Shown piece after piece: positions 3,069 to 34,938 of a DNA stretch of 34,938 bases. The notes under the pieces were generated by a model. It was not told the DNA's origin. It ran no database searches and saw only the letters and a program-made list of their open reading frames with translations. The stretch is taken from contig JBBTZM010000005.1 in the NCBI GenBank assembly GCA_038061335.1, positions 1 through 34,938 on the forward strand. Direction: 5' to 3'. This DNA comes from Patescibacteria group bacterium (GTDB lineage Bacteria > Patescibacteriota > Minisyncoccia > UBA6257 > GWB1-50-10). Made by a program: the position numbers and the translations under genes. Numbering within the stretch: the stretch's first letter is position 1; each line of letters starts with the position of its first letter.

Positions 3069-3228
3069 CGAATATGTAAACATTTAAATATGTAAATATA
3101 TAAATATGCAAATTTTTTCGGTTGCAGTACTTTTTGGAGCGGCATACCATCTCGTGCGAGACGTGCTGCAAATAGCGGGTATCCAAAATGATGTTTTACA
3201 TATTTAAATCTTTACATATTTAAATTCT
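3069..3228. repeat. inverted 'acatttaaatatgtaaa' word repeats flanking an about 80-nt unique core
   Basis: Left arm 3071-3113 (atatgtaaacatttaaatatgtaaatat...) and right arm 3194-3225 (ttttacatatttaaatctttacatatttaaat). Core stem is 3122-3130/3163-3171. A related word copy lies at 3697-3719. Confidence 0.7.
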
Positions 3229-3234
3229 CAAAAT

Positions 3235-3696
3235 ATGGCAACGATTCAACGATTTGAGGACCTCGTGTGTTGGCAAAAATCGCGCCTTCTCGTAAGAGAA
3301 ATATATAAAGCAATGCAAGGCTGTAAAGATTACGGTTTCCGTGACCAGATTCAGCGTGCCGCGGTGTCCGTTTTATCCAACATCGCGGAAGGATTCGAAA
3401 GAGGAACAAAACAAGAATTTTTGAACTATCTCTATATCGCAAAAGGGTCCGCGGGCGAAGTCCGCGCTCAATTATACGTTGCCCTGGATGTCGGCCATAT
3501 AAATATTGAAACATTTACATATTTAAGTGGTCTTGCGCTCGATTGCTCCCGCCTCATACAAAGTTTCGCGGAGAAAGTAAAAGGCGGCTCAAGGCAGGGG
3601 ATGCAATGTAAGCCCGTACAAAAGCCCGACCCCGTAAAGGAGATAATAAAGGAAATGACCCCGGAGGTGTATAAGAGATTTTACAAAGACGAATAA
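3235..3696 (+). CDS. four-helix-bundle protein (23S rRNA intervening-sequence protein family)
   Basis: Family-typical sequence: FEDLVCWQKSRLLVREIY...RDQIQRAAVSVLSNIAEGFERGTKQEFLNYLYIAKGSAGEVRAQLYVA. Confidence 0.8.
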   Translation: MATIQRFEDLVCWQKSRLLVREIYKAMQGCKDYGFRDQIQRAAVSVLSNIAEGFERGTKQEFLNYLYIAKGSAGEVRAQLYVALDVGHINIETFTYLSGLALDCSRLIQSFAEKVKGGSRQGMQCKPVQKPDPVKEIIKEMTPEVYKRFYKDE

Positions 3697-3754
3697 AAAT
3701 ATTTAAACATTTAAATGATTTTAGAAAAAGAAATACAGATGATACAATACTATC

Positions 3755-7545: not shown

Positions 7546-9413
7546 TGAATATTCGGAACTTTTGCATCATTGCCCACATTGACCACGGCAAGTCCACGCT
7601 CGCGGACCGGTTTTTGGAACTTACGAATACCGTGGAGAAACGGAAAATGAAGGCCCAGCTTTTGGACCAGATGGAGCTTGAGCGCGAGCGGGGAATCACG
7701 ATTAAAATGGCCCCTGTGAGAATGATGTATCATTCTCACAGGGGCCATCCTGAGCGAAGCGAAGGATCCAGAGATCCTTCAGCAAGGCTTCAGGATGACG
7801 AAAAAAATCAAAAATTTGTTTTGAATTTGATAGACACTCCCGGCCACAGCGATTTTTCGTACGAAGTTTCCCGCGCCTTGCACGCGGTTGAGGGCGCTAT
7901 CCTTTTAGTGGACGCGACCCAGGGCATTCAGGCCCAGACCCTCGCGAACTTGCGCGCGGCCGAGGCCGCGGGCCTTACCATCATAGGGGCTCTAAACAAG
8001 GTGGACCTGAACCCCCCGGGAATGGACGACTTGACTTTGGAGCTCGCGGAACTCATTCACGCGGAGCCGGATGAAATTCACCGCGTTTCCGGAAAAACGG
8101 GGCAGGGCGTGGAACAACTTTTACAGGCGGTGGTAGAAAAGATCCCGCCTCCGTCAATCCGCGTCAATCCGCGTAATAATCCGCGTGAGTCCGCGATGCC
8201 CGCGAGGGCATTGGTTTTCGATTCTTTCTACGACAACCACAAGGGCATTGTGGCCTCGGTGCGGGTGATGAATGGCATATTTTTAGGAGGCAAGGAAACC
8301 ATATTTGTGGCAACGGAACGAAAGTGGAAGCCAAAGGAAATCGGTATATTTGCGCCTCAATGTACGCCAAAAGAAACGTTAGAGGAAGGAGAAATAGGGT
8401 ATATCGCGACCGGAGTAAAAGATGTGGAAGACATCAAGATCGGAGATACCGCAATCCAAGGAGTTCGCGAGCCGGATATGTCGCTCCTCCTCGCTGGCTA
8501 CAAAGAGCCAAGCCCCGTGGTCTTTATTTCGTTTTATCCGGAAGACGCGGACGAGCACGAGGAACTCGGTAAGGCGCTCCAGAAACTTCGTTTAACGGAT
8601 TCGGCAATGACTATAGAGCCGGATGCAAACGAGGTTTTGGGGCGCGGCTTCAAGGTTGGGTTTTTAGGGAGTTTGCATTTTGAAATTATCGCCGAGCGCC
8701 TGAAGCGGGAATTTGACATCGGGGTTTCGACGACCTTTCCTTCGGTTGCGTATCGCGTGAAAATAAAAGGAGAATGGAGCGTGATTACGAACCCCATGGA
8801 CCTGCCCCCGGACGCCGAAATAGTAGAAGAGCCAATCGTGCGGGTGGAGATTTTAATTCCGGAGACGCACGTCAATAGTTTTTTCGGATTTCAGGAGCAT
8901 TTCCGATTTGGAGCAATCGAAACCGAAACACAAGGGAAAAGAATGCTCATTCGCGCCATGATGCCCCTTTCTGAACTCATGAGCGACTTTGACGACAAAT
9001 TGAAATCCGCGACGCAAGGATATGCCTCTTTTAGTTATGAGGTTGCGGGATACGAGCGGGCCGACATGGTACGGGTGGATTTTTTGGTAGCCGGAGCGAT
9101 TATCCCGGGCATGAGCCGCCTCTTCCACAAAAGCACTTTTGAGAAGGAAGCGCGGAAAACCGTGGAGCGGCTAAAAGAACTCTTGTCTCGCCAGCAGTTT
9201 GCTCAGGCCATCCAGGCGAGCGCCTTGGGGCGGATTATCGCGCGCGAGAACATTCCGGCGCTTAGTAAAAATGTCACCGGACACCTGTATGGAGGGGACA
9301 GGACGAGAAAGATGAAACTCTGGAAAAAACAGAAAAGAGGCAAGGAGAAGCTGAAAGAACGGGCGCACGTGGAAATCACGCCGGAGGTGTTTCGTGAGCT
9401 CTTAAAAAAATAA
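7545..9413 (+). CDS. lepA: elongation factor 4 (LepA) carrying an in-frame 21-codon insertion
   Basis: AHIDHGKST (G1), DTPGH (G3), NKVD (G4) and a full-length LepA C-terminal domain. The TAATG start overlaps the stop of the upstream gene. Confidence 0.95.
   Translation: MNIRNFCIIAHIDHGKSTLADRFLELTNTVEKRKMKAQLLDQMELERERGITIKMAPVRMMYHSHRGHPERSEGSRDPSARLQDDEKNQKFVLNLIDTPGHSDFSYEVSRALHAVEGAILLVDATQGIQAQTLANLRAAEAAGLTIIGALNKVDLNPPGMDDLTLELAELIHAEPDEIHRVSGKTGQGVEQLLQAVVEKIPPPSIRVNPRNNPRESAMPARALVFDSFYDNHKGIVASVRVMNGIFLGGKETIFVATERKWKPKEIGIFAPQCTPKETLEEGEIGYIATGVKDVEDIKIGDTAIQGVREPDMSLLLAGYKEPSPVVFISFYPEDADEHEELGKALQKLRLTDSAMTIEPDANEVLGRGFKVGFLGSLHFEIIAERLKREFDIGVSTTFPSVAYRVKIKGEWSVITNPMDLPPDAEIVEEPIVRVEILIPETHVNSFFGFQEHFRFGAIETETQGKRMLIRAMMPLSELMSDFDDKLKSATQGYASFSYEVAGYERADMVRVDFLVAGAIIPGMSRLFHKSTFEKEARKTVERLKELLSRQQFAQAIQASALGRIIARENIPALSKNVTGHLYGGDRTRKMKLWKKQKRGKEKLKERAHVEITPEVFRELLKK
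7729..7797 (+). repeat. in-frame palindromic insertion inside lepA (two hairpins)
   Basis: 7729-7747 is the exact reverse complement of 7708-7726. 7746-7797 is an imperfect palindrome (catcctga...gaaggatc caga gatccttc...tcaggatg). It encodes HSHRGHPERSEGSRDPSARLQ between the G2 and G3 motifs. Confidence 0.8.
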
Positions 9414-22104: not shown

Positions 22105-22190
22105 ACAAATGGTACGAATGATACTAATGATACGAATAAAATTCATTTGTATTATTCGTATCATTAATACAATTCGTATATTGGTATCAT
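22105..22190. repeat. long imperfect inverted repeat of 'tacgaat/attcgta' words upstream of lexA
   Basis: Left arm caaatggtacgaatgatactaatgatacgaataa, right arm ttattcgtatcattaatacaattcgtatattggtatcat. 22149-22193 is nearly identical to 26500-26544. Confidence 0.8.
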
Positions 22191-26425: not shown

Positions 26426-26541
26426 ATGATACAAATATACTAATGGTACGAATGATACTAATGGATACGAATAATTACGAATGAGAATACAGCAGATTAG
26501 TATTATTCGTATCATTAGTACAATTCGTATATTGGTATCAT
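26426..26541. repeat. long imperfect inverted repeat of 'tacgaat/attcgta' words in a divergent promoter region
   Basis: Left arm atgatacaaatatactaatggtacgaatgatactaatggatacgaataattac, right arm gtattattcgtatcattagtacaattcgtatattggtatcat. Confidence 0.8.
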
Positions 26542-27184: not shown

Positions 27185-27206
27185 TAAACACGTTTTGTAC
27201 ATGAGG

Positions 27207-27243
27207 TACGAATATACGAATACCATACGAATAGTACGAATAT
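27207..27243 (+). repeat. 'tacgaata' word repeat in the rpsL 5' UTR
   Basis: gaggtacgaatatacgaataccatacgaatagtacgaatATCAG. Direct repeats only. Related to 32027-32064 and 34031-34068. Confidence 0.8.
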
Positions 27244-27253
27244 CAGCTTTGGC

Positions 27254-27670
27254 ATGCCTACGGTAAATCAACTTCTAAAACACGCGAGAAAGAGCAGGGT
27301 AAAGAAAGAAAAGACGCCGGCGCTTCGGCGGTATTTTAATTATCTCCACAACAGGCCGGTGGATTCCCCCTCGCCTTTCAAGCGAGGAGTGTGCGTGAAG
27401 GTGTTTACCACGACTCCAAAAAAACCGAACTCCGCGCTCCGAAAAGTGGCGCGCGTGCGGCTTACAAACGGGATGGAGGTAACCGCCTATATCCCGGGAG
27501 AGGGGCATAATCTGCAGGAACACTCGGTGGTCGTGATTCGGGGCGGAAGGGTGAAAGACCTTCCCGGAGTGCGTTACCACGTGGTGCGAGGCGTGCTTGA
27601 CACGCAGGGGGTGGGCCCGAGAAAACAGGGACGTTCAAAATACGGAACAAAGAGACCAAAAGAGCAATAA
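27254..27670 (+). CDS. rpsL: 30S ribosomal protein S12
   Basis: MPTVNQLLK...[31 protein letters not shown]. Confidence 0.97.
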
Positions 27671-27700
27671 TCTGCAATTTGCAATCTGCAATTTGCAATC
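27671..27700 (+). repeat. tandem 'tctgcaatttgcaa' word repeat in the rpsL-rpsG spacer
   Basis: tctgcaatttgcaa tctgcaatttgcaa tc: two copies, followed by the ATCAG motif. Confidence 0.8.
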
Positions 27701-27710
27701 AGTGTATAGT

Positions 27711-28184
27711 ATGCGCAAAGGAGGTAAATATAAAAAACAGGAGCCGCAGCCGGACTATAAATATAACCGCATAGACATGGGTCGGTTTATTAACTATTTA
27801 ATGAGCCAGGGTAAAAAGAGCGTGGCGGAAAAGGTGTTTTACGGCGCGCTGGAAGAGGTGGAAAAGAAAACAAAGGCGAACCCGGTGGAGGTGTTTGAGA
27901 AGGCGATGGAAAACACTTCGCCTACCGTGGAGGTTGCCTCCCGCAGGGTGGGAGGGGCGAACTATCAGATTCCCATCGAGGTCCGGCCACAGAGAAAATT
28001 TTATCTTTCCTCGCGGTGGATTATAAACGCGGCGCGAGGAAAAAAGGGAAAGCCGATGCATATCCGGCTTGCCGAAGAAATTATCGCGGCTTCGAAAAAC
28101 GAAGGGGAGGCGATAAAGAAGAAACAGGACACTCATCGCGTGGCTGAAGCAAACCGCGCGTTTGCCTCCTTTTTAAGGAGATAG
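27711..28184 (+). CDS. rpsG: 30S ribosomal protein S7
   Basis: Start at the internal Met (MRKGGKYKKQEP...). Contains VEVASRRVGGANYQIPIEVRPQR. Confidence 0.95.
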   Translation: MRKGGKYKKQEPQPDYKYNRIDMGRFINYLMSQGKKSVAEKVFYGALEEVEKKTKANPVEVFEKAMENTSPTVEVASRRVGGANYQIPIEVRPQRKFYLSSRWIINAARGKKGKPMHIRLAEEIIAASKNEGEAIKKKQDTHRVAEANRAFASFLRR

Positions 28185-28199
28185 GCAGGGGCAAGGAAG

Positions 28200-28285
28200 C
28201 CGGTATGGTAAGGGGGTAAGGGTAAGGTAAAAAAACACTAACTACCTAACCCCTAAACCAAACCGGCATCTCTACCTTAACCCTA
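28200..28285. repeat. imperfect inverted repeat of 'ggtaagg / ccttacc' words
   Basis: ccggtatggtaagggggtaagggtaaggtaa ... ctacctaacccctaaaccaaaccgg ... ctaccttaaccct. Confidence 0.7.
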
Positions 28286-28297
28286 TTACTATTTTGT

Positions 28298-28471
28298 ATG
28301 CCCCGAGAATATCCAATAGAAAAAGTAAGAAATATCGGCATTATCGCCCACATAGACGCGTCGTCCCGCCAAGGCGGGACTTCCCTAAAACCCAGCGGTT
28401 TTAGTATTTCCGCCACGGGGAAACTCCCGTTTCCCCGACCCCTTTCCCGCATCTCTGTGGGCGGCAGGTAA
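28298..28471 (+). pseudogene. duplicated fusA 5' fragment (21 codons) fused to insert-derived sequence (57-codon ORF)
   Basis: 28298-28360 encodes [21 protein letters not shown], identical at the protein level to fusA codons 1-21. It then diverges inside the P-loop and stops at 28469-28471. Confidence 0.8.
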
Positions 28472-28483
28472 TTTATTTAATCT
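28361..28483 (+). other. 123-nt GC-rich three-hairpin insert between the two fusA 5' copies
   Basis: Hairpins at 28362-28380 (gtcccgc-caag-gcgggac), 28385-28404 (ctaaaacc-cagc-ggttttag) and 28416-28437 (cggggaaac-tccc-gtttccccg), the last nested in 28410-28464. Confidence 0.7.
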
Positions 28484-30580
28484 ATGCCAAGGGAATATCC
28501 AATAGAAAAAGTAAGAAATATCGGCATTATCGCCCACATAGATGCCGGAAAAACCACGGCAACCGAGGGTATTTTGTATTTGACGGGCCGGACTCACAAA
28601 ATCGGCGCGGTGCACGAGGGAGACACGCAGATGGACTGGATGGAACAGGAGCGCGAGCGCGGCATCACCATTACTTCGGCGGCCACAACTTGTTTTTGGA
28701 AACCAAAGCACTACCCGTCAAGCGGTACTCATCGCGTGAATATCATTGATACTCCCGGGCACATTGATTTTACGGTTGAGGTGCAGCGTTCACTCCGGGT
28801 CCTCGACGGCGCCGTGGTTCTTTTTGACGGGAAGATGGGGGTGGAGCCCCAGTCCGAAACCGTATGGCACCAGGCGGATGGGTTTGGCGTACCAAGAATT
28901 TGTTTTGTGAACAAGATTAATCAGACCGGCGGCGACTTTTGGAAAAGTTTGAAGTCAATTCGCGAACGCCTAAGCCCCAACGCCACCCCGATCCAAATCC
29001 CAATTGGGTTTGAAAAAGAAATCCGGGGAGTGGTGGACCTTGTAAAAATGAAGGCCTATACCTATAAAAATTACAGCGACAAAGAACTCGGAGAAGAAGA
29101 AATTCCGATTGAGCTCATGGAAGAGGCGAAAAAATGGAGGCATGAACTCATGGAAAAGGCCGTGGAGTCGGATGACACGCTTATGGAAAAATATCTCGCC
29201 GGAAAAGAATTGGAAGAGAAAGAATTGGTTCACGCGATTCGCAAAAGTACGCTTCAGGGCAAACTCTTTCCGGTTTTGGGAGGAGACGGAAGGGGAGTCA
29301 TCGTGGAGACGCTTCTTGACGCGGTGGTAAACTACTTGCCGGCTCCGACCGACCTCCCGCCCGTACAAGGGACACATCCGAAAACGGACAACAAAGAAGA
29401 ACGGAGCGCGAAAGACGAGGAACCATTTGCCGCGCTCGCTTTCAAAATTGCCTCGGACCCGTTTGTGGGCGCGCTTACCTTTTTTCGCGTGTATTCCGGA
29501 ACGCTTGAGAAGGGAAGTTACATTTTAAACGCCTCAAAAAATTCTCAGGAGCGGGTGGGGCGCATCGTCCGTCTCCATGCGAACCAGCGGGAAGACGTGG
29601 ACGCCGTGTATGCCGGAGAAATTGCGGCAATTGTTGGCTTGAAAAACACCGGAACCGGAGACACGCTCGCAAATCCCGAGCATCCGATTCTTCTTGAACG
29701 CATCTCTTTCCCCGAACCCGTGATTTCCGTAAGCATTGAGCCAAAGACAAAGGCGGACCAGGAGAAGATGGGCATCGCGCTTCGACGACTTTCGGAAGAG
29801 GACCCGACCTTTAAGGTGGGAGGGAACAAGGAGACGGGCGAGACCGTGATTTCCGGCATGGGAGAACTTCATTTGGAAATTCTTGTGGACCGGATGAAGC
29901 GCGAATTTACCGTGGAGGCAAACGTGGGCCGCCCGCAGGTGGCGTACAAGGAAACGATTAGGGCAGAGGCCGAGGCCGAAGGGAAATATATTAAGCAGTC
30001 CGGAGGACGCGGTCAGTATGGACACGTATGGCTCCGAGTTGCTCCGAGAGAGCGCGGCGCGGGATTTGAGTTTGTAACCAAGATACGCGGAGGAGTTATT
30101 CCTCAGGAATATATTCCCGCCGTTGGAAAGGGCGCGAAAGAGGCCCTGGACAAGGGCGTCGTTGCCGGATATCCGCTTGTGGACATCGAGGCAACGCTTT
30201 ATGATGGCTCGTTTCACGAGGTGGACTCTTCGGAAATGGCGTTCAAAATTGCGGGCTCCATGGCGTTTCAGGAAGCGGTACGGCGCGCCAGTCCCGTGCT
30301 CCTTGAGCCGATTATGAAAGTGCAGATTATCGTTTCCGCGAATTTTTTGGGAGACGTAACCGGAGACGTAAACGCGAAACGGGGAAAGATTCTTCAAATG
30401 GGAGAGCGCGAGAGCGTACGGCTCGTGGATACGGAAATTCCGCTTTCCGAGATGTTTGGATACTCGACCACGCTTCGCTCCATGACCCAAGGGCGCGGCT
30501 CCTTCACCATGGAGTTTAGCCACTACGCCGAGGTGCCGAAACATATCGCGGAGCAAATTGCGGAAGGAAAAAGAAGGTGA
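28484..30580 (+). CDS. fusA: elongation factor G
   Basis: [22 protein letters not shown] and full five-domain length (698 aa). Confidence 0.97.
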
Positions 30581-30601: not shown

Positions 30602-30630
30602 TTGTCAAATAAAAGAAAGTTTGATACAAT
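30602..30630 (+). promoter_or_regulatory. tuf promoter
   Basis: TTGTCA (30602-30607), a 17-nt spacer, then TACAAT (30625-30630). The implied 5' UTR of about 125 nt contains the word hairpin. Confidence 0.6.
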
Positions 30631-30668: not shown

Positions 30669-30750
30669 AAATTTCCAATCTCTAATATCTAATTTCCAAT
30701 AAATGTCCAAATGATCGAATTGGTAATTAGAAATTGGTAATTAGAAATTT
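30669..30750. repeat. imperfect inverted repeat of 'tttccaat/ttctaat' words in the tuf 5' UTR
   Basis: aaatttccaatctctaatatctaatttccaat (30669-30700) against attggtaattagaaattggtaattagaaattt (30719-30750). Confidence 0.8.
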
Positions 30751-30759
30751 TAACCAGAT

Positions 30760-31956
30760 ATGGCAGAAAAAGCAAAATTCAATCGTTCGAAGCCGCACGT
30801 AAACGTCGGCACTATCGGACACGTTGACCACGGAAAGACGACTTTGACCGCGGCGATTACGCACGTCTTGCACATGAAAGGTCTCGCGAAAGAAGAGCGG
30901 GTGGACCAGATTGACAACGCTCCGGAAGAGAAGGCCCGGGGAATCACCATCGCGCTCCATCACTCGGAGTACGAATCCGAGAAAAGGCACTACGCGCACA
31001 TCGACGCGCCGGGCCACGCGGACTACATTAAGAACATGATTACGGGCGCGGCCCAGATGGACGGCGCGGTTCTCGTGGTTTCGGCCTCGGACGGCCCCAT
31101 GCCCCAGACCCGTGAGCACATTCTGCTTGCCCGCCAGGTGGGAGTTCCGGCCATTGTTGTCTTCTTGAACAAAGTGGACACGGTGGATGACCCGGACCTT
31201 GTGGACCTCGTTGAGTCCGAAGTTCGGGAGCTCTTGAACAAATACGAGTTTCCGGGAGATACGATTCCGATTATTCGGGGTTCGGCCCTAAAGGCCCTGG
31301 AAACAAAGTCCCTGGACGAGGCGGCTGCGAAGCCGATTCTTGAACTCATCGAAGCGCTCGATTCGCACATTCCGGAGCCGGTTCGCGACCGCGAAAAGCC
31401 ATTTCTTATGGCAATCGAAGATATTTTCTCGATTGAGGGACGCGGCACGGTGGTGACGGGACGCATTGAGCGCGGAGTTGTGAAGTTGAACGATGAGGTG
31501 GAGATTATCGGACTCCGACCCACCGTGAAGACCGTCGTTACGGGTATCGAAATGTTCCAAAAGCTTTTGGATGAGGGTCAGGCGGGCGACAATGTGGGAG
31601 TTCTTCTCCGCGGAACGAAGAAAGAGGATGTGGAGCGCGGGCAGGTGCTCGCGAAGCCGGGCTCGGTTACTCCGCACACCGAATTTATCGCCGAGGTGTA
31701 TGTACTCTCCAAAGAGGAGGGCGGGCGGCACACTCCGTTTTTCAAGGGCTACAAACCCCAATTCTATTTCCGGACAACGGACGTAACCGGAGAAGTAATT
31801 TTGGGAGAGGGAATTGAAATGGTGATGCCCGGAGATACGGCAAACGTAACGGTCACGCTTATTTCCCCGGTCGCTCTGGAAGAGAAACAGCGATTCGCGA
31901 TTCGCGAAGGAGGAAAGACCGTGGGAGCGGGAGTGGTAACGAAGGTTATGAAGTAG
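30760..31956 (+). CDS. tuf: elongation factor Tu
   Basis: [28 protein letters not shown]. 398 aa. Confidence 0.98.
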
Positions 31957-32026
31957 ATTCAAAATTTTCTTGAATCAGGGCACAGGAGCGCAGGTTCCTG
32001 TGTCCAAATTCGCGAAGATTGAAAGT

Positions 32027-32103
32027 GAGCTACGAATGTACGAATAGCATACGAATATACGAATCCGATTCGTATATTCGTACAAGATTTGTACATTCGT
32101 ATA
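32027..32103. repeat. 'tacgaat' word hairpin between tuf and rpsJ
   Basis: Left arm 32031-32064, loop ccg, right arm 32068-32101. 32027-32064 matches 34031-34068 at 37 of 38 positions. Confidence 0.85.
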
Positions 32104-32110
32104 TCAGGGC

Positions 32111-32440
32111 ATGCCCCCAAAAAAAGAAGAACAAAAAGAGCGGCTACGCATCAAGGTAAAGGCCTATGACGCGAAGCTTATAGAAAATTCCGTGCGCCAG
32201 ATTATCGAGGCCATTCGTCGGCAGGGCGGAGAGGTGGTGGGTCCGATTCCCCTCCCCACGGAAATCCGAAAATACACGGTGAACCGTTCGACATTCGTGC
32301 ACACGAAATCGCGTGACCAGTTTGAAATGCGGATTCACAAGCGTCTGGTTGACATCATAAGCCCCCAGCAGAAAATGGTGGAGTCGCTCACCAACTTAAA
32401 TCTTCCTTCCGGCGTTGACATTGAGGTAAAGATGGGATAA
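32111..32440 (+). CDS. rpsJ: 30S ribosomal protein S10
   Basis: LRIKVKAYDAKLIENSVRQIIE...GPIPLPT...FTVNRS-type core...RLVDI. Confidence 0.97.
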   Translation: MPPKKEEQKERLRIKVKAYDAKLIENSVRQIIEAIRRQGGEVVGPIPLPTEIRKYTVNRSTFVHTKSRDQFEMRIHKRLVDIISPQQKMVESLTNLNLPSGVDIEVKMG

Positions 32441-32532
32441 AATTTAAGAGATAGGTTCTAGCGCGGACTGAAGCTCAAAAAAATGTGGGAAGACCTTCGA
32501 AGTCGTTACGACCTCTCAAGGCGCCCCGCAGG

Positions 32533-32561
32533 CAACCGAGCACGGTCTTCGGTTGTTTTTT
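32533..32561 (+). terminator. intrinsic-terminator-like hairpin plus T6 between rpsJ and rplC (possible attenuator)
   Basis: caaccga-N9-tcggttg followed by tttttt. It ends 7 nt before the rplC ATG. Confidence 0.45.
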
Positions 32562-32568
32562 ATTGCGT

Positions 32569-33018
32569 ATGGAAAAAATTCAAGGGAAAAAAATAGGGAT
32601 GACGCAGGTTTGGAAGGGCGATACGGTTCTTCCGGTTACCTGTATACGCGTGGAGGGAGACACCTTGCCGGAAGAAGGCGCTTACGTGATTATTCATGGA
32701 GTTACGAAAGGAAAAGGATTCCAGGGCGTGGTCAAGCGCCATGGATTTCACGGCGGGCCGAAGACCCACGGGCAAAAACATTCTCATCGGGCGCCGGGCT
32801 CTATTGGCGCGACTGCTCCCCAGCGCGTGATTCCGGGAAGAAAGATGGCGGGACGAATGGGAGGCGACTCAAAGACCCTGAAGCGCGTGCGCGTGGAAGA
32901 AGTTCGAAAGGAAGAAAAAATTATTTTGGTGAAAGGTCCCGTGCCCGGAATGAGAAAAAGCAGGGTGGAAATAGAAATTCCAAACGACAAATCACAAATT
33001 ACAAACAATACCGAATAG
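32569..33018 (+). CDS. rplC: 50S ribosomal protein L3 (short form, 149 aa)
   Basis: Start at the internal Met (MEKIQGKKIGMTQVW). Contains KGKGFQGVVKRHGF, HRAPGSIGA and GRKMAGRMG. Confidence 0.9.
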   Translation: MEKIQGKKIGMTQVWKGDTVLPVTCIRVEGDTLPEEGAYVIIHGVTKGKGFQGVVKRHGFHGGPKTHGQKHSHRAPGSIGATAPQRVIPGRKMAGRMGGDSKTLKRVRVEEVRKEEKIILVKGPVPGMRKSRVEIEIPNDKSQITNNTE

Positions 33019-33057
33019 TCAATTTATTTGTGATTTGGTGCTTGTGATTTGTAATTT
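32987..33057. repeat. 'caaatcaca / tgtgatttg' word inverted repeat spanning the rplC 3' end and the rplC-rplD spacer
   Basis: acaaatcacaaattacaaaca (32987-33007, coding DKSQITN of the rplC C-terminal tail) against tttgtgatttggtgcttgtgatttgtaattt (33027-33057). Confidence 0.7.
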
Positions 33058-33059
33058 TT

Positions 33060-33698
33060 ATGCACATAGATATCGTAAACACAGAAAATAAAAAGGTGGG
33101 CGCCATGGAACTTCCCGAGGGTGTGTTTGGCGTACAGTGGAATCCCGAACTTTTGCATCAGGTGATGACTTCGCTTACGACGCGGAAGCGCGCGCCTCTC
33201 GCGCACACGAAGGGCCGGGGGGATGTGCGCGGCGGCGGGAAAAAACCATGGCGTCAGAAGGGGACCGGCCGCGCGCGGCACGGCTCGACGCGTTCTCCTA
33301 TCTGGGTGGGAGGGGGCGTGGCATTCGGGCCCACAAATGAAAGAAATTTTGAGAGAAAAATAAACAAAAAGATGAAAGCAAAAGCCCTGTATTCCCTGCT
33401 TTCGAAAAAATTAGAAGAGCGGGAAATCGCGGTTATTGATGATTTCGGAGTACAGGAGCCGAAGACCAAGACATTCGCGGCAATCCTTCGCGCTTTTTAC
33501 GGAGACGTACAAAAGGCCCCCCGCACTCTTTTTGTCGCGGCAAAAGGAGAGAGAGCCGCGCTCCTTTCGGGGCGGAATATCAAATATACAAGCGTGAGCT
33601 ACTCGAATGGATTGAATATCTTGGATTGCCTTCGGGCAAAGAAAATAATTTTTGGAGAAAAGGCGTTGAAAGAATTTATAGGGCAACAGACAACATAG
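33060..33698 (+). CDS. rplD: 50S ribosomal protein L4
   Basis: RGGGKKPWRQKGTGRARHGSTRSPIWVGGGVAFGP. Confidence 0.93.
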   Translation: MHIDIVNTENKKVGAMELPEGVFGVQWNPELLHQVMTSLTTRKRAPLAHTKGRGDVRGGGKKPWRQKGTGRARHGSTRSPIWVGGGVAFGPTNERNFERKINKKMKAKALYSLLSKKLEEREIAVIDDFGVQEPKTKTFAAILRAFYGDVQKAPRTLFVAAKGERAALLSGRNIKYTSVSYSNGLNILDCLRAKKIIFGEKALKEFIGQQTT

Positions 33699-33699
33699 T

Positions 33700-34032
33700 A
33701 TGGGTATTTTCAAAAAACAACCGAATAAAGAGAAAAAAAATGAGTCCCTCACCTTGAAAAAGGTTTCGCATTGGATAGAGCGGCCGTGGCTCAGCGAAAA
33801 AGCGACTGATTTGAAGGAGGCAAACGCCTATGTATTTAAGACGCGCCTCGATGCCGGGAAAACGGAAATTAAAAAAGAAATAGAGGCGCGATACGGCGTT
33901 CGCGTCCAGGGAGTGCGCGTCATACGGAGGATGGGGAAGGCGAAACGCTTCGGCAAACACGTTGGACACCGCGCGAATACCAAAAAGGCAATCGTGAAAT
34001 TGCAGAAAGGAGATACCATAGACATCATATGA
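33700..34032 (+). CDS. rplW: 50S ribosomal protein L23
   Basis: Position between rplD and rplB. Contains YVFKTRLDAGKTEIKKEIEARYGVRV and KKAIVKLQKGDTID. Confidence 0.9.
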   Translation: MGIFKKQPNKEKKNESLTLKKVSHWIERPWLSEKATDLKEANAYVFKTRLDAGKTEIKKEIEARYGVRVQGVRVIRRMGKAKRFGKHVGHRANTKKAIVKLQKGDTIDII

Positions 34033-34105
34033 GCTACGAATATACGAATAGCATACGAATATACGAATTTGTATATTCGTAGAAGATTCGTAAATTCGTA
34101 GATCA
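34031..34105. repeat. 'tacgaat' word hairpin between rplW and rplB
   Basis: Left arm 34035-34068, right arm up to 34100, then ATCAG. It begins on the rplW stop codon. Confidence 0.85.
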
Positions 34106-34113
34106 GCGAAAGC

Positions 34114-34938
34114 ATGAAGATATACAAGCCAACATCGCCGGGACAGAGAGGCACAATACTTGTCTCGAGAACCCTTTCAAAGGAAAAACCCTTGAAGGCG
34201 CTTTTGGTTTCAAAGAAGCGCCAGGCAGGGAGAAACAGCGCGGGAAGAATTACCGTGCGGCATCGGGGGGGCGGCCACAAGAGGCGGTATCGTCTTCTTG
34301 ATTTTCACCAGAAGAAATTCAATGTTCCCGGGCGAATAGAGGGAATCGAATACGACCCCTATCGCTCGGCTCATATCGCGAGGGTGCTCTACGCGGATGG
34401 AGCGCGCGCGTACATTCTTGCCCCCCATGGGCTGAAAGAAGGAGATGCCGTACAGACGATTTCCGAGGGTATCGAGATGAAAGAAGGAGTACGGCTCGCC
34501 CTGAAAGGTATTCCCGCCGGAACATTCGTGCATAATGTGGAATGTACTCCCGGCAAGGGAGGAGCTCTCGCTCGAGCCGCGGGTTCCGCGATTCAGCTTT
34601 TGGGAAACGAGGGGAAGTACGCGCATGTGAAAATGCCTTCCGGGGAGGTGAGAAGGATATTGAACGAGGGCTACGCCACTATTGGCAAACCTTCGAATTC
34701 CGAGCATAATTTGGAAAATTTGGGAAAGGCGGGGCGCTCGAGGTGGCGCGGCATACGCCCGACCGTGCGGGGAAGCGCGATGAATCCGGTGGACCATCCC
34801 TACGGCGGAGGAGAAGGCAAGGCCGTGCGCGGGACGAAAAGACCAAAAACAAAATGGGGTAAAATAACCGGAGGCAGAAAAACAAGGAGAAAGAAAAAAT
34901 GGTCAAACAAACTGATTATTCAGCGCAGAAAAACAAAA
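34114..34938 (+). CDS. rplB: 50S ribosomal protein L2 (3' end runs off the window)
   Basis: Hand-translated, since it is absent from the ORF track for lack of a stop in the window: MKIYKPTSPGQRG...RHRGGGHKRRYRLLDF...MNPVDHPYGGGEGK. Confidence 0.95.
   Translation, partial: MKIYKPTSPGQRGTILVSRTLSKEKPLKALLVSKKRQAGRNSAGRITVRHRGGGHKRRYRLLDFHQKKFNVPGRIEGIEYDPYRSAHIARVLYADGARAYILAPHGLKEGDAVQTISEGIEMKEGVRLALKGIPAGTFVHNVECTPGKGGALARAAGSAIQLLGNEGKYAHVKMPSGEVRRILNEGYATIGKPSNSEHNLENLGKAGRSRWRGIRPTVRGSAMNPVDHPYGGGEGKAVRGTKRPKTKWGKITGGRKTRRKKKWSNKLIIQRRKTK

Follow-up and report, generated by a model that had tools for sequence, protein, structure and literature searches.

Heptamer-word hairpins between stop and start codons in ribosomal-protein operons of a Patescibacteria genome and their likely kinship with a GxxExxY nuclease cassette

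The 23S rRNA genes of Coxiella, Leptospira, Salmonella and other bacteria carry intervening sequences (IVS), whose 28-bp terminal inverted-repeat stem is cut by RNase III (PMC4990558). IVS have heptamer repeats near the start of their open reading frame (ORF) and exist with or without this ORF, which encodes the S23p four-helix-bundle protein (PMC4990558). They have been reported in rRNA genes of Candidate Phyla Radiation (CPR) bacteria too (PMC11270868). Here we describe hairpins which share several of these properties and lie between protein-coding genes. They were found in a 34,938-nt stretch of DNA from a Patescibacteria group bacterium (the window), which is part of contig C5 of a 670-kb genome (G000; 101 contigs, 90% complete). 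The public records that match it closely are metagenome-assembled genomes of Patescibacteria/Parcubacteria type. Two near-identical hairpins made of TACGAAT heptamers occupy the tuf-rpsJ spacer and the rplW-rplB junction of its str/S10 ribosomal-protein operons.

Like the IVS, the TACGAAT hairpins are small inserts with inverted repeats and a long stem in the transcript, they have heptamer repeats near an ORF start, and an ORF of their own is optional. Members of the IVS ORF family (TIGR02436/S23p) are also found in G000, in two sister cassettes of which one lies in the window. Unlike the IVS, the copies are positioned between protein-coding genes and not in 23S helices 25 or 45, the cargo is GxxExxY and not S23p, and at least 24 copies are present per genome. 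Excision by RNase III has been shown for the IVS and would apply here by analogy.

In Neisseria, the small GIY-YIG nuclease Ssn cuts a single-stranded dispersed hairpin repeat, NTS (SRM), and modulates transformation or recombination (PMC11893778). The resemblance lies in a nuclease gene flanked by a hairpin repeat that is also present in many gene-less copies near important genes, and in the co-occurrence of gene and repeat. However, the fold here is PD-(D/E)XK, the arms consist of 7-nt words, the placement is exact from stop to start, and cutting of the repeat has been demonstrated for Ssn only. The REP/REPIN-RAYT systems likewise consist of short palindromes that occur between genes, with tens to hundreds of copies, genome-specific families and doublets making a larger hairpin, but the present family has no Y1 transposase match and no GTAG head, and REPs are mostly located at gene 3' ends instead of abutting starts. 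Bacterial miniature inverted-repeat transposable elements (Correia/NEMIS, RUP, ERIC and the Rickettsia palindromic elements) are also non-autonomous palindromic copies which are transcribed in operons and donate signals, and the Correia stems are RNase III substrates. In contrast to them, the presumed parent here carries a nuclease and not a transposase, the arms are word arrays, the start-codon bias is extreme and target duplication is uncertain. Finally, direct TAACTGA heptamer repeats precede start codons in Beggiatoaceae (PMC4679880). These and the cyanobacterial STRR have 2-6 words of 7 nt within a few nt of starts, including those of ribosomal-protein operons, in genomes or genes with few Shine-Dalgarno (SD) sites. 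They differ in that the arrays are direct and lack a partner arm, and in that no cargo gene has been described for them, and the solo arms before rpsL and rpsG in the window come closest to them.

The hairpins resemble the IVS, Ssn/NTS and REP/RAYT systems and belong to none of them: their sites are outside rRNA, the nuclease has a fold other than GIY-YIG, and no RAYT was found in the 90%-complete genome. In the literature, we found no description of heptamer-armed GxxExxY or four-helix-bundle cassettes at mRNA junctions. We add three observations: junctions that are filled here are empty in congeners, one copy in this genome bears a nuclease gene, and a distinct co-occurring organism has near-identical copies.

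The TACGAAT family and its placement

In the tuf-rpsJ hairpin (copy 1; Table 1), TGAGC is followed by four TACGAAT words, among which AGCA forms an internal loop. A CCG loop, four ATTCGTA words with a CAAG internal loop and TATCAG come next, after which GGC leads to the rpsJ ATG at 32111. In copy 2, the element's own TGA (34030-34032) is the stop codon of rplW, and the tail GATCAGCGAAAGC adjoins the rplB ATG at 34114. The first-pass annotation had noted near-identical left arms (37 of 38 nt) and imperfectly complementary right arms that form hairpins, and both observations were confirmed. The left arms (32026-32064 and 34030-34068) are identical at 38/39 nt, while complementarity reaches 83% over the 40-nt arms of copy 1 and 82% over the 38-nt arms of copy 2. 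The predicted RNA folds have -39.9 kcal/mol (z -8.74) and -36.6 kcal/mol (z -7.64), respectively, when compared with 200 shuffles each. The stems measure about 31-33 bp, and in both hairpins the opposite strand folds about equally strongly. A scan of the window at Rfam gathering thresholds returned two tRNAs only, and the hairpins are covered by no known RNA family. They do not look like intrinsic terminators either: the stems are AT-rich and are followed by ATCAGC... without a T run.

TACGAAT/ATTCGTA is the top intergenic 7-mer of the genome, with 316 copies of which 78% fall in intergenic calls (these derive from our own gene calls, which are crude). A profile built from five copies was used for an nhmmer search of G000, and we obtained 24 full-length copies and about 10 partial copies or solo arms. 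The plan was parsed in 23 copies. Their 5' half reads TGAGC, TACGAAT-R-TACGAAT, AGCA, TACGAAT-R-TACGAAT and a loop of 0-19 nt. The 3' half reads ATTCGTA-Y-ATTCGTA, a four-base spacer (usually CAAA, CAAG, CACA or AAAG), ATTCGTA-Y-ATTCGTA and then (T/G)ATCA or GCTCA. Each arm holds four evenly spaced 7-nt words with 1-nt and 4-nt spacers. A short tail follows the 3' end, often of the form GC-loop-GC (GCTTCAGC, GCGAAGC, GCGAAAGC), and then the ATG of the next gene. Over the same 77-nt sequence, the G000 copies are on average 81% and up to 97% identical. A better preservation of the left arm than of the right was ruled out (87.2% versus 87.8%). The variable low-complexity interior proposed earlier is not a trait within the family, since both arms are about 87% conserved; it is between families that the interior differs.

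An ATG-initiated ORF starts 2-15 nt beyond the 3' end in 23/24 copies, and the stop codon of a co-oriented ORF is at most 3 nt away from TGAGC in 16/24. For four upstream genes (rplW, rplP, rpsC and an ORF on contig C58) the stop codon is the element's TGA, and the same is true of pilT at the full cassette described below. The elements lie in operons which are contiguous in relatives; the stem base contains or adjoins the stop on its 5' side, and the ATG follows a few nt beyond its 3' side. Surviving copies are found between a stop and the next start or, if the gene is promoter-proximal, immediately upstream of its start. All of them are between protein-coding genes, and none is in 23S helices. 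The element with common termini which had been postulated from the window is a genome-wide family of highly regular placement. In all, 255/431 intergenic regions in G000 share repeat sequence with another one.

Ribosomal-protein genes are downstream of 12/24 full-length copies, and 11 of these were confirmed, L2, S10, L16, L29, S14, S8, L17, S11, L11 and L10 by Pfam and L6 by reading of the sequence. The twelfth encodes an S21-like 70-aa protein without a Pfam match. Further downstream genes encode GroEL, MetK, AtpF, PilB, PilT and an FtsE-like protein. Partial copies are located 5' of S12 and RNase J, and a sister-family element 5' of AtpE. The names GroEL, MetK, PilB and RNase J are our own reading of the sequences.

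Empty sites, the nuclease cassette and a second organism

The rplW-rplB junction was expected to be tight, and it indeed measures -4 to +5 nt in 11/11 relatives versus 81 nt here. G002, a genome of the same genus, reads ATATGAAG at this position, which is an empty ATGA overlap, and G000 reads ATATGA, 77 nt and ATGAAG. The rplP-rpmC, rplE-rpsN, rpsN-rpsH, rpsH-rplF, groES-groEL and nusG-rplK junctions are also empty in at least one relative, which brings the junctions with an empty site to seven. At 7/7 of them ATG or ATGA flanks the insert on both sides. This would fit a duplication of the start codon, but the case is not secure.

The same junctions can be filled by different families. At nusG-rplK an element is present in G000, G001, G002, G021 and G007, and the site is empty in G012; this junction is filled in 5/6 and groES-groEL in 3/5 genomes, each by its own word family. 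At rplE-rpsN, rpsN-rpsH and rpsH-rplF we found TACGAAT copies in G000 and CACGAAT copies in G001, while G002 has CCGAAT-type hairpins and a remnant at rpsH-rplF.

A full cassette with the same termini as the hairpins is located on contig C80 of G000 (8389-8864). Its half-sites at 8389-8431 (E 4e-9) and 8825-8864 (E 3e-7) match the family model and are 394 nt apart. They enclose a 131-aa ORF (8431-8826) which matches TIGR04256 GxxExxY (1.5e-30) and PF13366 (PD-(D/E)XK nuclease superfamily; 5.8e-31). TGAGC contains the pilT stop and is followed by the left arm, a GC, the ORF (ATG...TGA), the right arm and GCTCA, and the latter with the adjoining TG forms the ATG of the next gene, which we read as pilC. 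Since the same arms bracket a nuclease gene here, the hairpins would be gene-less derivatives of the nuclease cassette.

This arrangement is found more than once. Three GxxExxY and two four-helix-bundle (TIGR02436) genes are present in G000, and 5/5 are bracketed by inverted word arms. The arm words all differ: TACGAAT; CGCGGAA; GATACCAATATAC...TATTGGTATCAT; CATATTTAAAT; and TCTAATT/AATTAGAAAT. Such word classes are also used by the gene-less hairpins at the tuf leader, rplC-rplD and rpsG-fusA. ACGAAT-word matches were found in 9/40 relatives, and GxxExxY is present in 8/9 of these versus 4/31 of the rest, although these are related genomes and not independent samples. In G021, which belongs to a different genus, its own ACGAAT arms bracket a GxxExxY gene and also directly precede many start codons. 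In a tree of 15 nucleases, the CGAAT-armed genes fall outside a well-supported clade with CGCAGAT, CGCGGAA, ACGCAAA and CTGATA arms. In this small tree the arm word class follows the nuclease clade, which is suggestive only.

Two further observations concern the GxxExxY cassettes. A second palindromic family, GATACCAATATAC...TATTGGTATCAT, is present in the window at 474-519, 22113-22190 and 26447-26541, with a GxxExxY-bearing copy at C80:1244-1700. It ends in an extended -10-like TGGTATCAT located 4-6 nt 5' of the ATG of secA, lexA and an M50 protease gene, and may act as a mobile promoter for leaderless transcripts. In relatives, armed GxxExxY genes were also seen in frame inside host genes (L107 in G001; L109 in G021; L108, L119 and L111 in G007, G001 and G027). 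The sites are in lepA after the ...ERERGITIK motif and in a recG-like helicase gene after DEQHRFGV, with open frames of 774-896 aa. Such a cassette would break up or lengthen the LepA or RecG-like host protein.

In a pattern scan of public metagenome contigs, matches came only from the source sample, Hainich groundwater well H43. The low-coverage contigs L125, L126, L127 and L131 belong to a different organism, whose ribosomal, secY and pilus genes have 65-74% DNA identity to G000. They hold six elements, five of which are 89-95% and the sixth 84% identical to G000 copies, when the internal mean of G000 is 81%. Copies of the second organism occupy junctions that are tight in G000 (rpsE-rplO and rplO-secY, ATGA overlap), and one lies where G000 has a different family. 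This near-identity across organisms is our strongest evidence that the family moves.

Since near-identical copies occupy 24 loci, their sites are empty in relatives, one copy bears a nuclease gene and near-identical copies exist in another organism, the family was copied from site to site. It had been suggested that the hairpins are a defined element class with conserved ends, either mobile or generated in situ. The class and the copying are supported, and generation in situ by microsatellite expansion does not account for the family.

The orientation of the copies in the second organism is a separate observation. In 3/5 full-length copies (L126:814-899, L131:977-1048 and L127:300-375) the downstream gene is on one strand and the better match to the family model on the other. 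We inspected L126:814-899, where only the interior has been turned round, and the TGAGC end and the ATG-side tail keep their orientation. This suggests a flip-flop inversion within the palindrome.

Mobile cassette, host device or nuclease site

A family that was copied to new sites and is common to two organisms behaves as selfish or mobile DNA. The hairpins are probably gene-less copies of a heptamer-armed cassette, in which a GxxExxY PD-(D/E)XK nuclease gene is enclosed in TGAGC-TACGAAT...ATTCGTA-GCTCA arms, and which shows such selfish or mobile behaviour. Several results weigh against this. Target duplication is uncertain: TGAGC follows an A in only 10/18 copies, often because this A belongs to a TAA stop codon, and at metK and rpsJ the left ATG is missing. 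No movement was seen in the population, and L123, a replicate assembly at 99.8% identity to C5, contains the same five copies. Roughly half of the downstream genes encode ribosomal proteins, and the same junctions are occupied by different word families across genera; this bias and repeated occupancy are as compatible with a host benefit, or with insertion hot spots, as with pure selfishness. Regarding a transposase, no Y1_Tnp (PF01797; positive controls were matched) and no RVT_1 was found in the 90%-complete G000, with DDE families not searched. The stems do not show RNA-level selection (22 G-U versus 15 A-C mismatches in 24 copies), and the sense strand is more stable in only 11/24 copies (Wilcoxon p 0.55). 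Because there is no asymmetry across the 24 copies, we dropped the claim of a selected sense-strand stem. An origin from RAYT/IS200-type elements or retroelements was rejected on the lack of Y1_Tnp and RVT_1 matches in the 90%-complete G000.

Translation in this lineage has its own features. Start codons of G000 show no SD enrichment (16% versus 20% in the control), and a TATAAT-like signal is enriched at -12 to -7 of many starts, as expected for a leaderless-mRNA signature. The 16S 3' tails of G002 (same genus; GGATCAATTTTTTT) and G003 (same family; GGATTAATTACACT) are without CCTCC, and the anti-SD tail appears to be lost in the lineage. The 16S ends are ...GTGGATCAATTTTTTT at L121 (G002:C40) and ...GTGGATTAATTACACT at L120 (G003:C1), and the 16S gene of G000 itself is incomplete. 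A gene for RNase III is present in G000 (C16:3759-4151).

We propose that the cassette-derived element would be transcribed inside the operon mRNA, where its arms would pair into the stem. The stem would put the stop beside the start, so that termination-reinitiation coupling could outlive the insertion. In such an SD-less cell, internal cistrons probably rely on tight stop-start coupling, and a self-folding insert with its own TGA would be tolerated where other inserts would be lethal. Tolerance of inserts that preserve the stop-start arrangement would explain the exact placement. The stem is also a likely RNase III substrate by analogy with the 23S rRNA IVS, and processing is plausible because of this likeness and the presence of the RNase III gene. 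After cleavage, only a very short leader would remain on the downstream cistron, which would suit a lineage without SD pairing and with many leaderless mRNAs. The nuclease probably recognises the arms and may act on them as Ssn nucleases act on their flanking repeats, and repair between copies provoked by the nuclease could homogenise the family of each genome. Such repair would explain the likeness of the copies within a genome. It is rather doubtful that the helix, which has the upstream stop in its base and ends 5-12 nt before the AUG, lets the terminating ribosome cross to the next start in a shunt-like reinitiation, or replaces the SD helix on the 30S platform. The geometry of the crossing would be comparable to ribosome shunting in plant pararetroviruses.

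The hairpins could instead be host expression devices, in which a helix 5-12 nt before the AUG marks the start, aids reinitiation or protects the mRNA, and the sequence is free to change. The constant orientation with the 3' end near the start in 23/24 copies speaks for it, as do the mainly highly expressed housekeeping genes downstream (the 11 confirmed ribosomal ones, the S21-like one, GroEL, MetK, AtpF, PilB and PilT) and the filling of nusG-rplK and groES-groEL in most genomes by their own word families. The lack of an SD signal and of an anti-SD in the 16S tail points in the same direction, and the TAACTGA heptamers before Beggiatoaceae starts have been read similarly (PMC4679880). Nevertheless, we consider this unlikely. 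Empty, tight junctions suffice for the expression of these genes in close relatives and the solo arms at rpsL and rpsG form no hairpin, and both facts speak against the necessity of hairpins. The stems show neither a surplus of G-U over A-C nor a compensatory pattern, a nuclease gene is enclosed by these very arms, and the majority of full-length copies in the second organism match better on the opposite strand; in the inspected copy only the interior is flipped. That both strands fold equally would be expected of a DNA-level signal, and the arms might be cognate DNA sites of a GxxExxY nuclease with a cellular role, as in Ssn/NTS, with a placement that reflects exposed single-stranded DNA near highly transcribed genes. 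Such a role is possible together with the selfish cassette, as the two are not exclusive, but it is quite unlikely in itself. A nuclease gene framed by its own repeats, which are also found as many gene-less copies, has a published precedent in Ssn (PMC11893778), and the arm word class follows the nuclease clade in the small tree. However, the fold is PD-(D/E)XK and not GIY-YIG, G002 has its own word hairpins and no GxxExxY match, and the exact stop-to-start placement would be left unexplained.

It is very improbable that the elements are mobile promoters which fire leaderless transcripts of the downstream gene. Many G000 genes do have a TATAAT-like box at -12 to -7, and TATTGGTATCAT, with which the sister family ends, is an extended -10 located 4-6 nt upstream of ATG codons; at -12 to -7 the TACGAAT family reads ATCAGC instead. 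The nearest -10-like hexamers (TATATC, TAGATC, TAGCTC, TAGCAG) are without the conserved final T and vary between copies, which lie inside operons contiguous in relatives. We rejected the promoter for the TACGAAT family on this -10 sequence (no TAnnnT box). An independent origin in place at each junction, by simple-repeat slippage and palindrome correction, is hardly credible, even though the long simple repeats of bacteria are most commonly heptamer arrays (Mrazek 2007, as cited in PMC4679880), the word families are numerous and include singletons, and in the G001 family the words within an arm are more uniform than the arms are complementary. The 24 loci share the same 77 nt including non-repetitive termini and internal loops, the copies of the other organism keep 84-95% identity to those of G000 (five of six 89-95%), and the same arms enclose a gene. 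An origin in place is contradicted for the TACGAAT family and could hold only for singleton arrays.

CPR bacteria have genomes among the smallest cellular ones, yet more than half of the intergenic regions here share repeat sequence, and str, S10 and spc, which are the best conserved operons in biology, are interrupted by hairpins at one junction after another. The link to a nuclease-bearing parent would give the very large 'function unknown' GxxExxY family a concrete genomic behaviour and would extend the puzzle of the 23S rRNA IVS from rRNA to mRNA. In practical terms, word elements break assemblies, create spurious ORFs and shift start-codon calls in CPR annotation. If the hairpins serve SD-less translation, they would represent a new way of selecting internal start codons. 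A selfish element that seeks start codons would then have become part of translating the internal cistrons of essential operons.

Other word elements in the window

Besides the two TACGAAT hairpins, the window contains related solo arms, hairpins of other word classes and a full sister cassette (Table 1).

Table 1. Word elements in the window
Feature	Position	Strand	Location	Score or fold
Gene-less TACGAAT element, copy 1	32026..32107	+	tuf-rpsJ spacer	81.0 bits, family-model positions 1-77
Gene-less TACGAAT element, copy 2	34030..34113	+	occupies the whole rplW-rplB junction	81.9 bits
Solo left arm (TGAGG and four TACGAAT words)	27202..27253	+	rpsL leader, before ATG at 27254	24.5 bits, model positions 1-39
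Array of four (C/T)TGCAAT heptamers with ATCAG end	27671..27710	+	between rpsL stop (27668-27670) and rpsG ATG (27711)	
GGTAAGG/CCTAACC-type word hairpin	28184..28296	+	3' of rpsG stop, upstream of the duplicated fusA 5' end	-44.8 kcal/mol, z -3.22
TCTAAT/AATTAGAAAT-type word hairpin	30669..30750	+	tuf leader, 9 nt before ATG at 30760	-21.3 kcal/mol, z -2.62
ACAAATC-type word hairpin	32989..33057	+	spans rplC stop and rplC-rplD spacer, 2 nt before rplD ATG (33060)	z -2.07
Full sister cassette, four-helix-bundle gene in CATATTTAAAT word arms	around 3071..3720	+		TIGR02436 match

The first-pass annotation had placed a hairpin-less relative in the rpsL leader and a different word in the rpsL-rpsG spacer, and we found both. 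The solo arm before rpsL runs straight into the family tail ATCAGCTTTGGC without a partner arm; over 27202-27241 it matches the reference left arm at 77%, and it is unfolded (z +0.85). The rpsG-spacer heptamers themselves (27671-27702) are direct repeats only (z -1.03), and similar arrays are present at C39:7657 and C95:6295. This array belongs to a different word family, with only ATCAG in common, and is most likely an orphan arm.

The elements before rpsL, rpsG, rpsJ and rplB had been described as sharing GAG(C/G)...ATCAG ends. The ATCAG was found in all four, ending 7, 8, 3 and 7 nt before the respective ATG, while the 'GAGC' assigned to the rpsG spacer is inside the rpsL coding sequence and is probably there by chance. 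We rejected ATCAG as a general pre-start signal, since outside the TACGAAT family it is no commoner before ATG than in permuted controls. Near a start codon it is a mark of the TACGAAT family and not a genome-wide signal.

The word class of the tuf-leader hairpin also brackets a four-helix-bundle gene on contig C78. Upstream of this hairpin, in the fusA-tuf interval, a near-consensus promoter (TTGTCA, 17 nt, TACAAT) was predicted at 30602-30630, which would put the hairpin in the 5' leader of tuf and not in an intercistronic spacer. The rplC-rplD junction measures -11 to +26 nt in relatives, except for one that has its own 181-nt word hairpin. In the sister cassette, the four-helix-bundle gene (C5:3268-3582) matches TIGR02436, the 23S-IVS protein family, at 7.8e-29. 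Next to the rpsG-fusA hairpin, the first 63 nt of fusA are duplicated (28297-28359 and 28483-28545; 94% identical), and the two copies are separated by about 124 nt of GC-rich insert.

Two places on contig C5 are affected by runs of N. A 100-N scaffold gap at the rplN-rplX junction (C5:37943-38042), shortly after the end of the window, hides a hairpin of the CACGAAT family, which dominates in the congener G001; the content of the gap was read from the replicate assembly L123. An N run at the rplB-rpsS junction gave rise to the 409-aa rplB ORF, and we dismissed this apparent L2-S19 fusion as an artefact. Elsewhere in the genome, the sequence upstream of metK (C93:4380-4490; ...aaaggtgc...gggaaagataa...cttcctttt.ggga) is conserved in G000, G001, G002 and G012 and looks like an S-adenosylmethionine (SAM) riboswitch. 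The TACGAAT element at metK is positioned between this putative riboswitch and the metK ATG.

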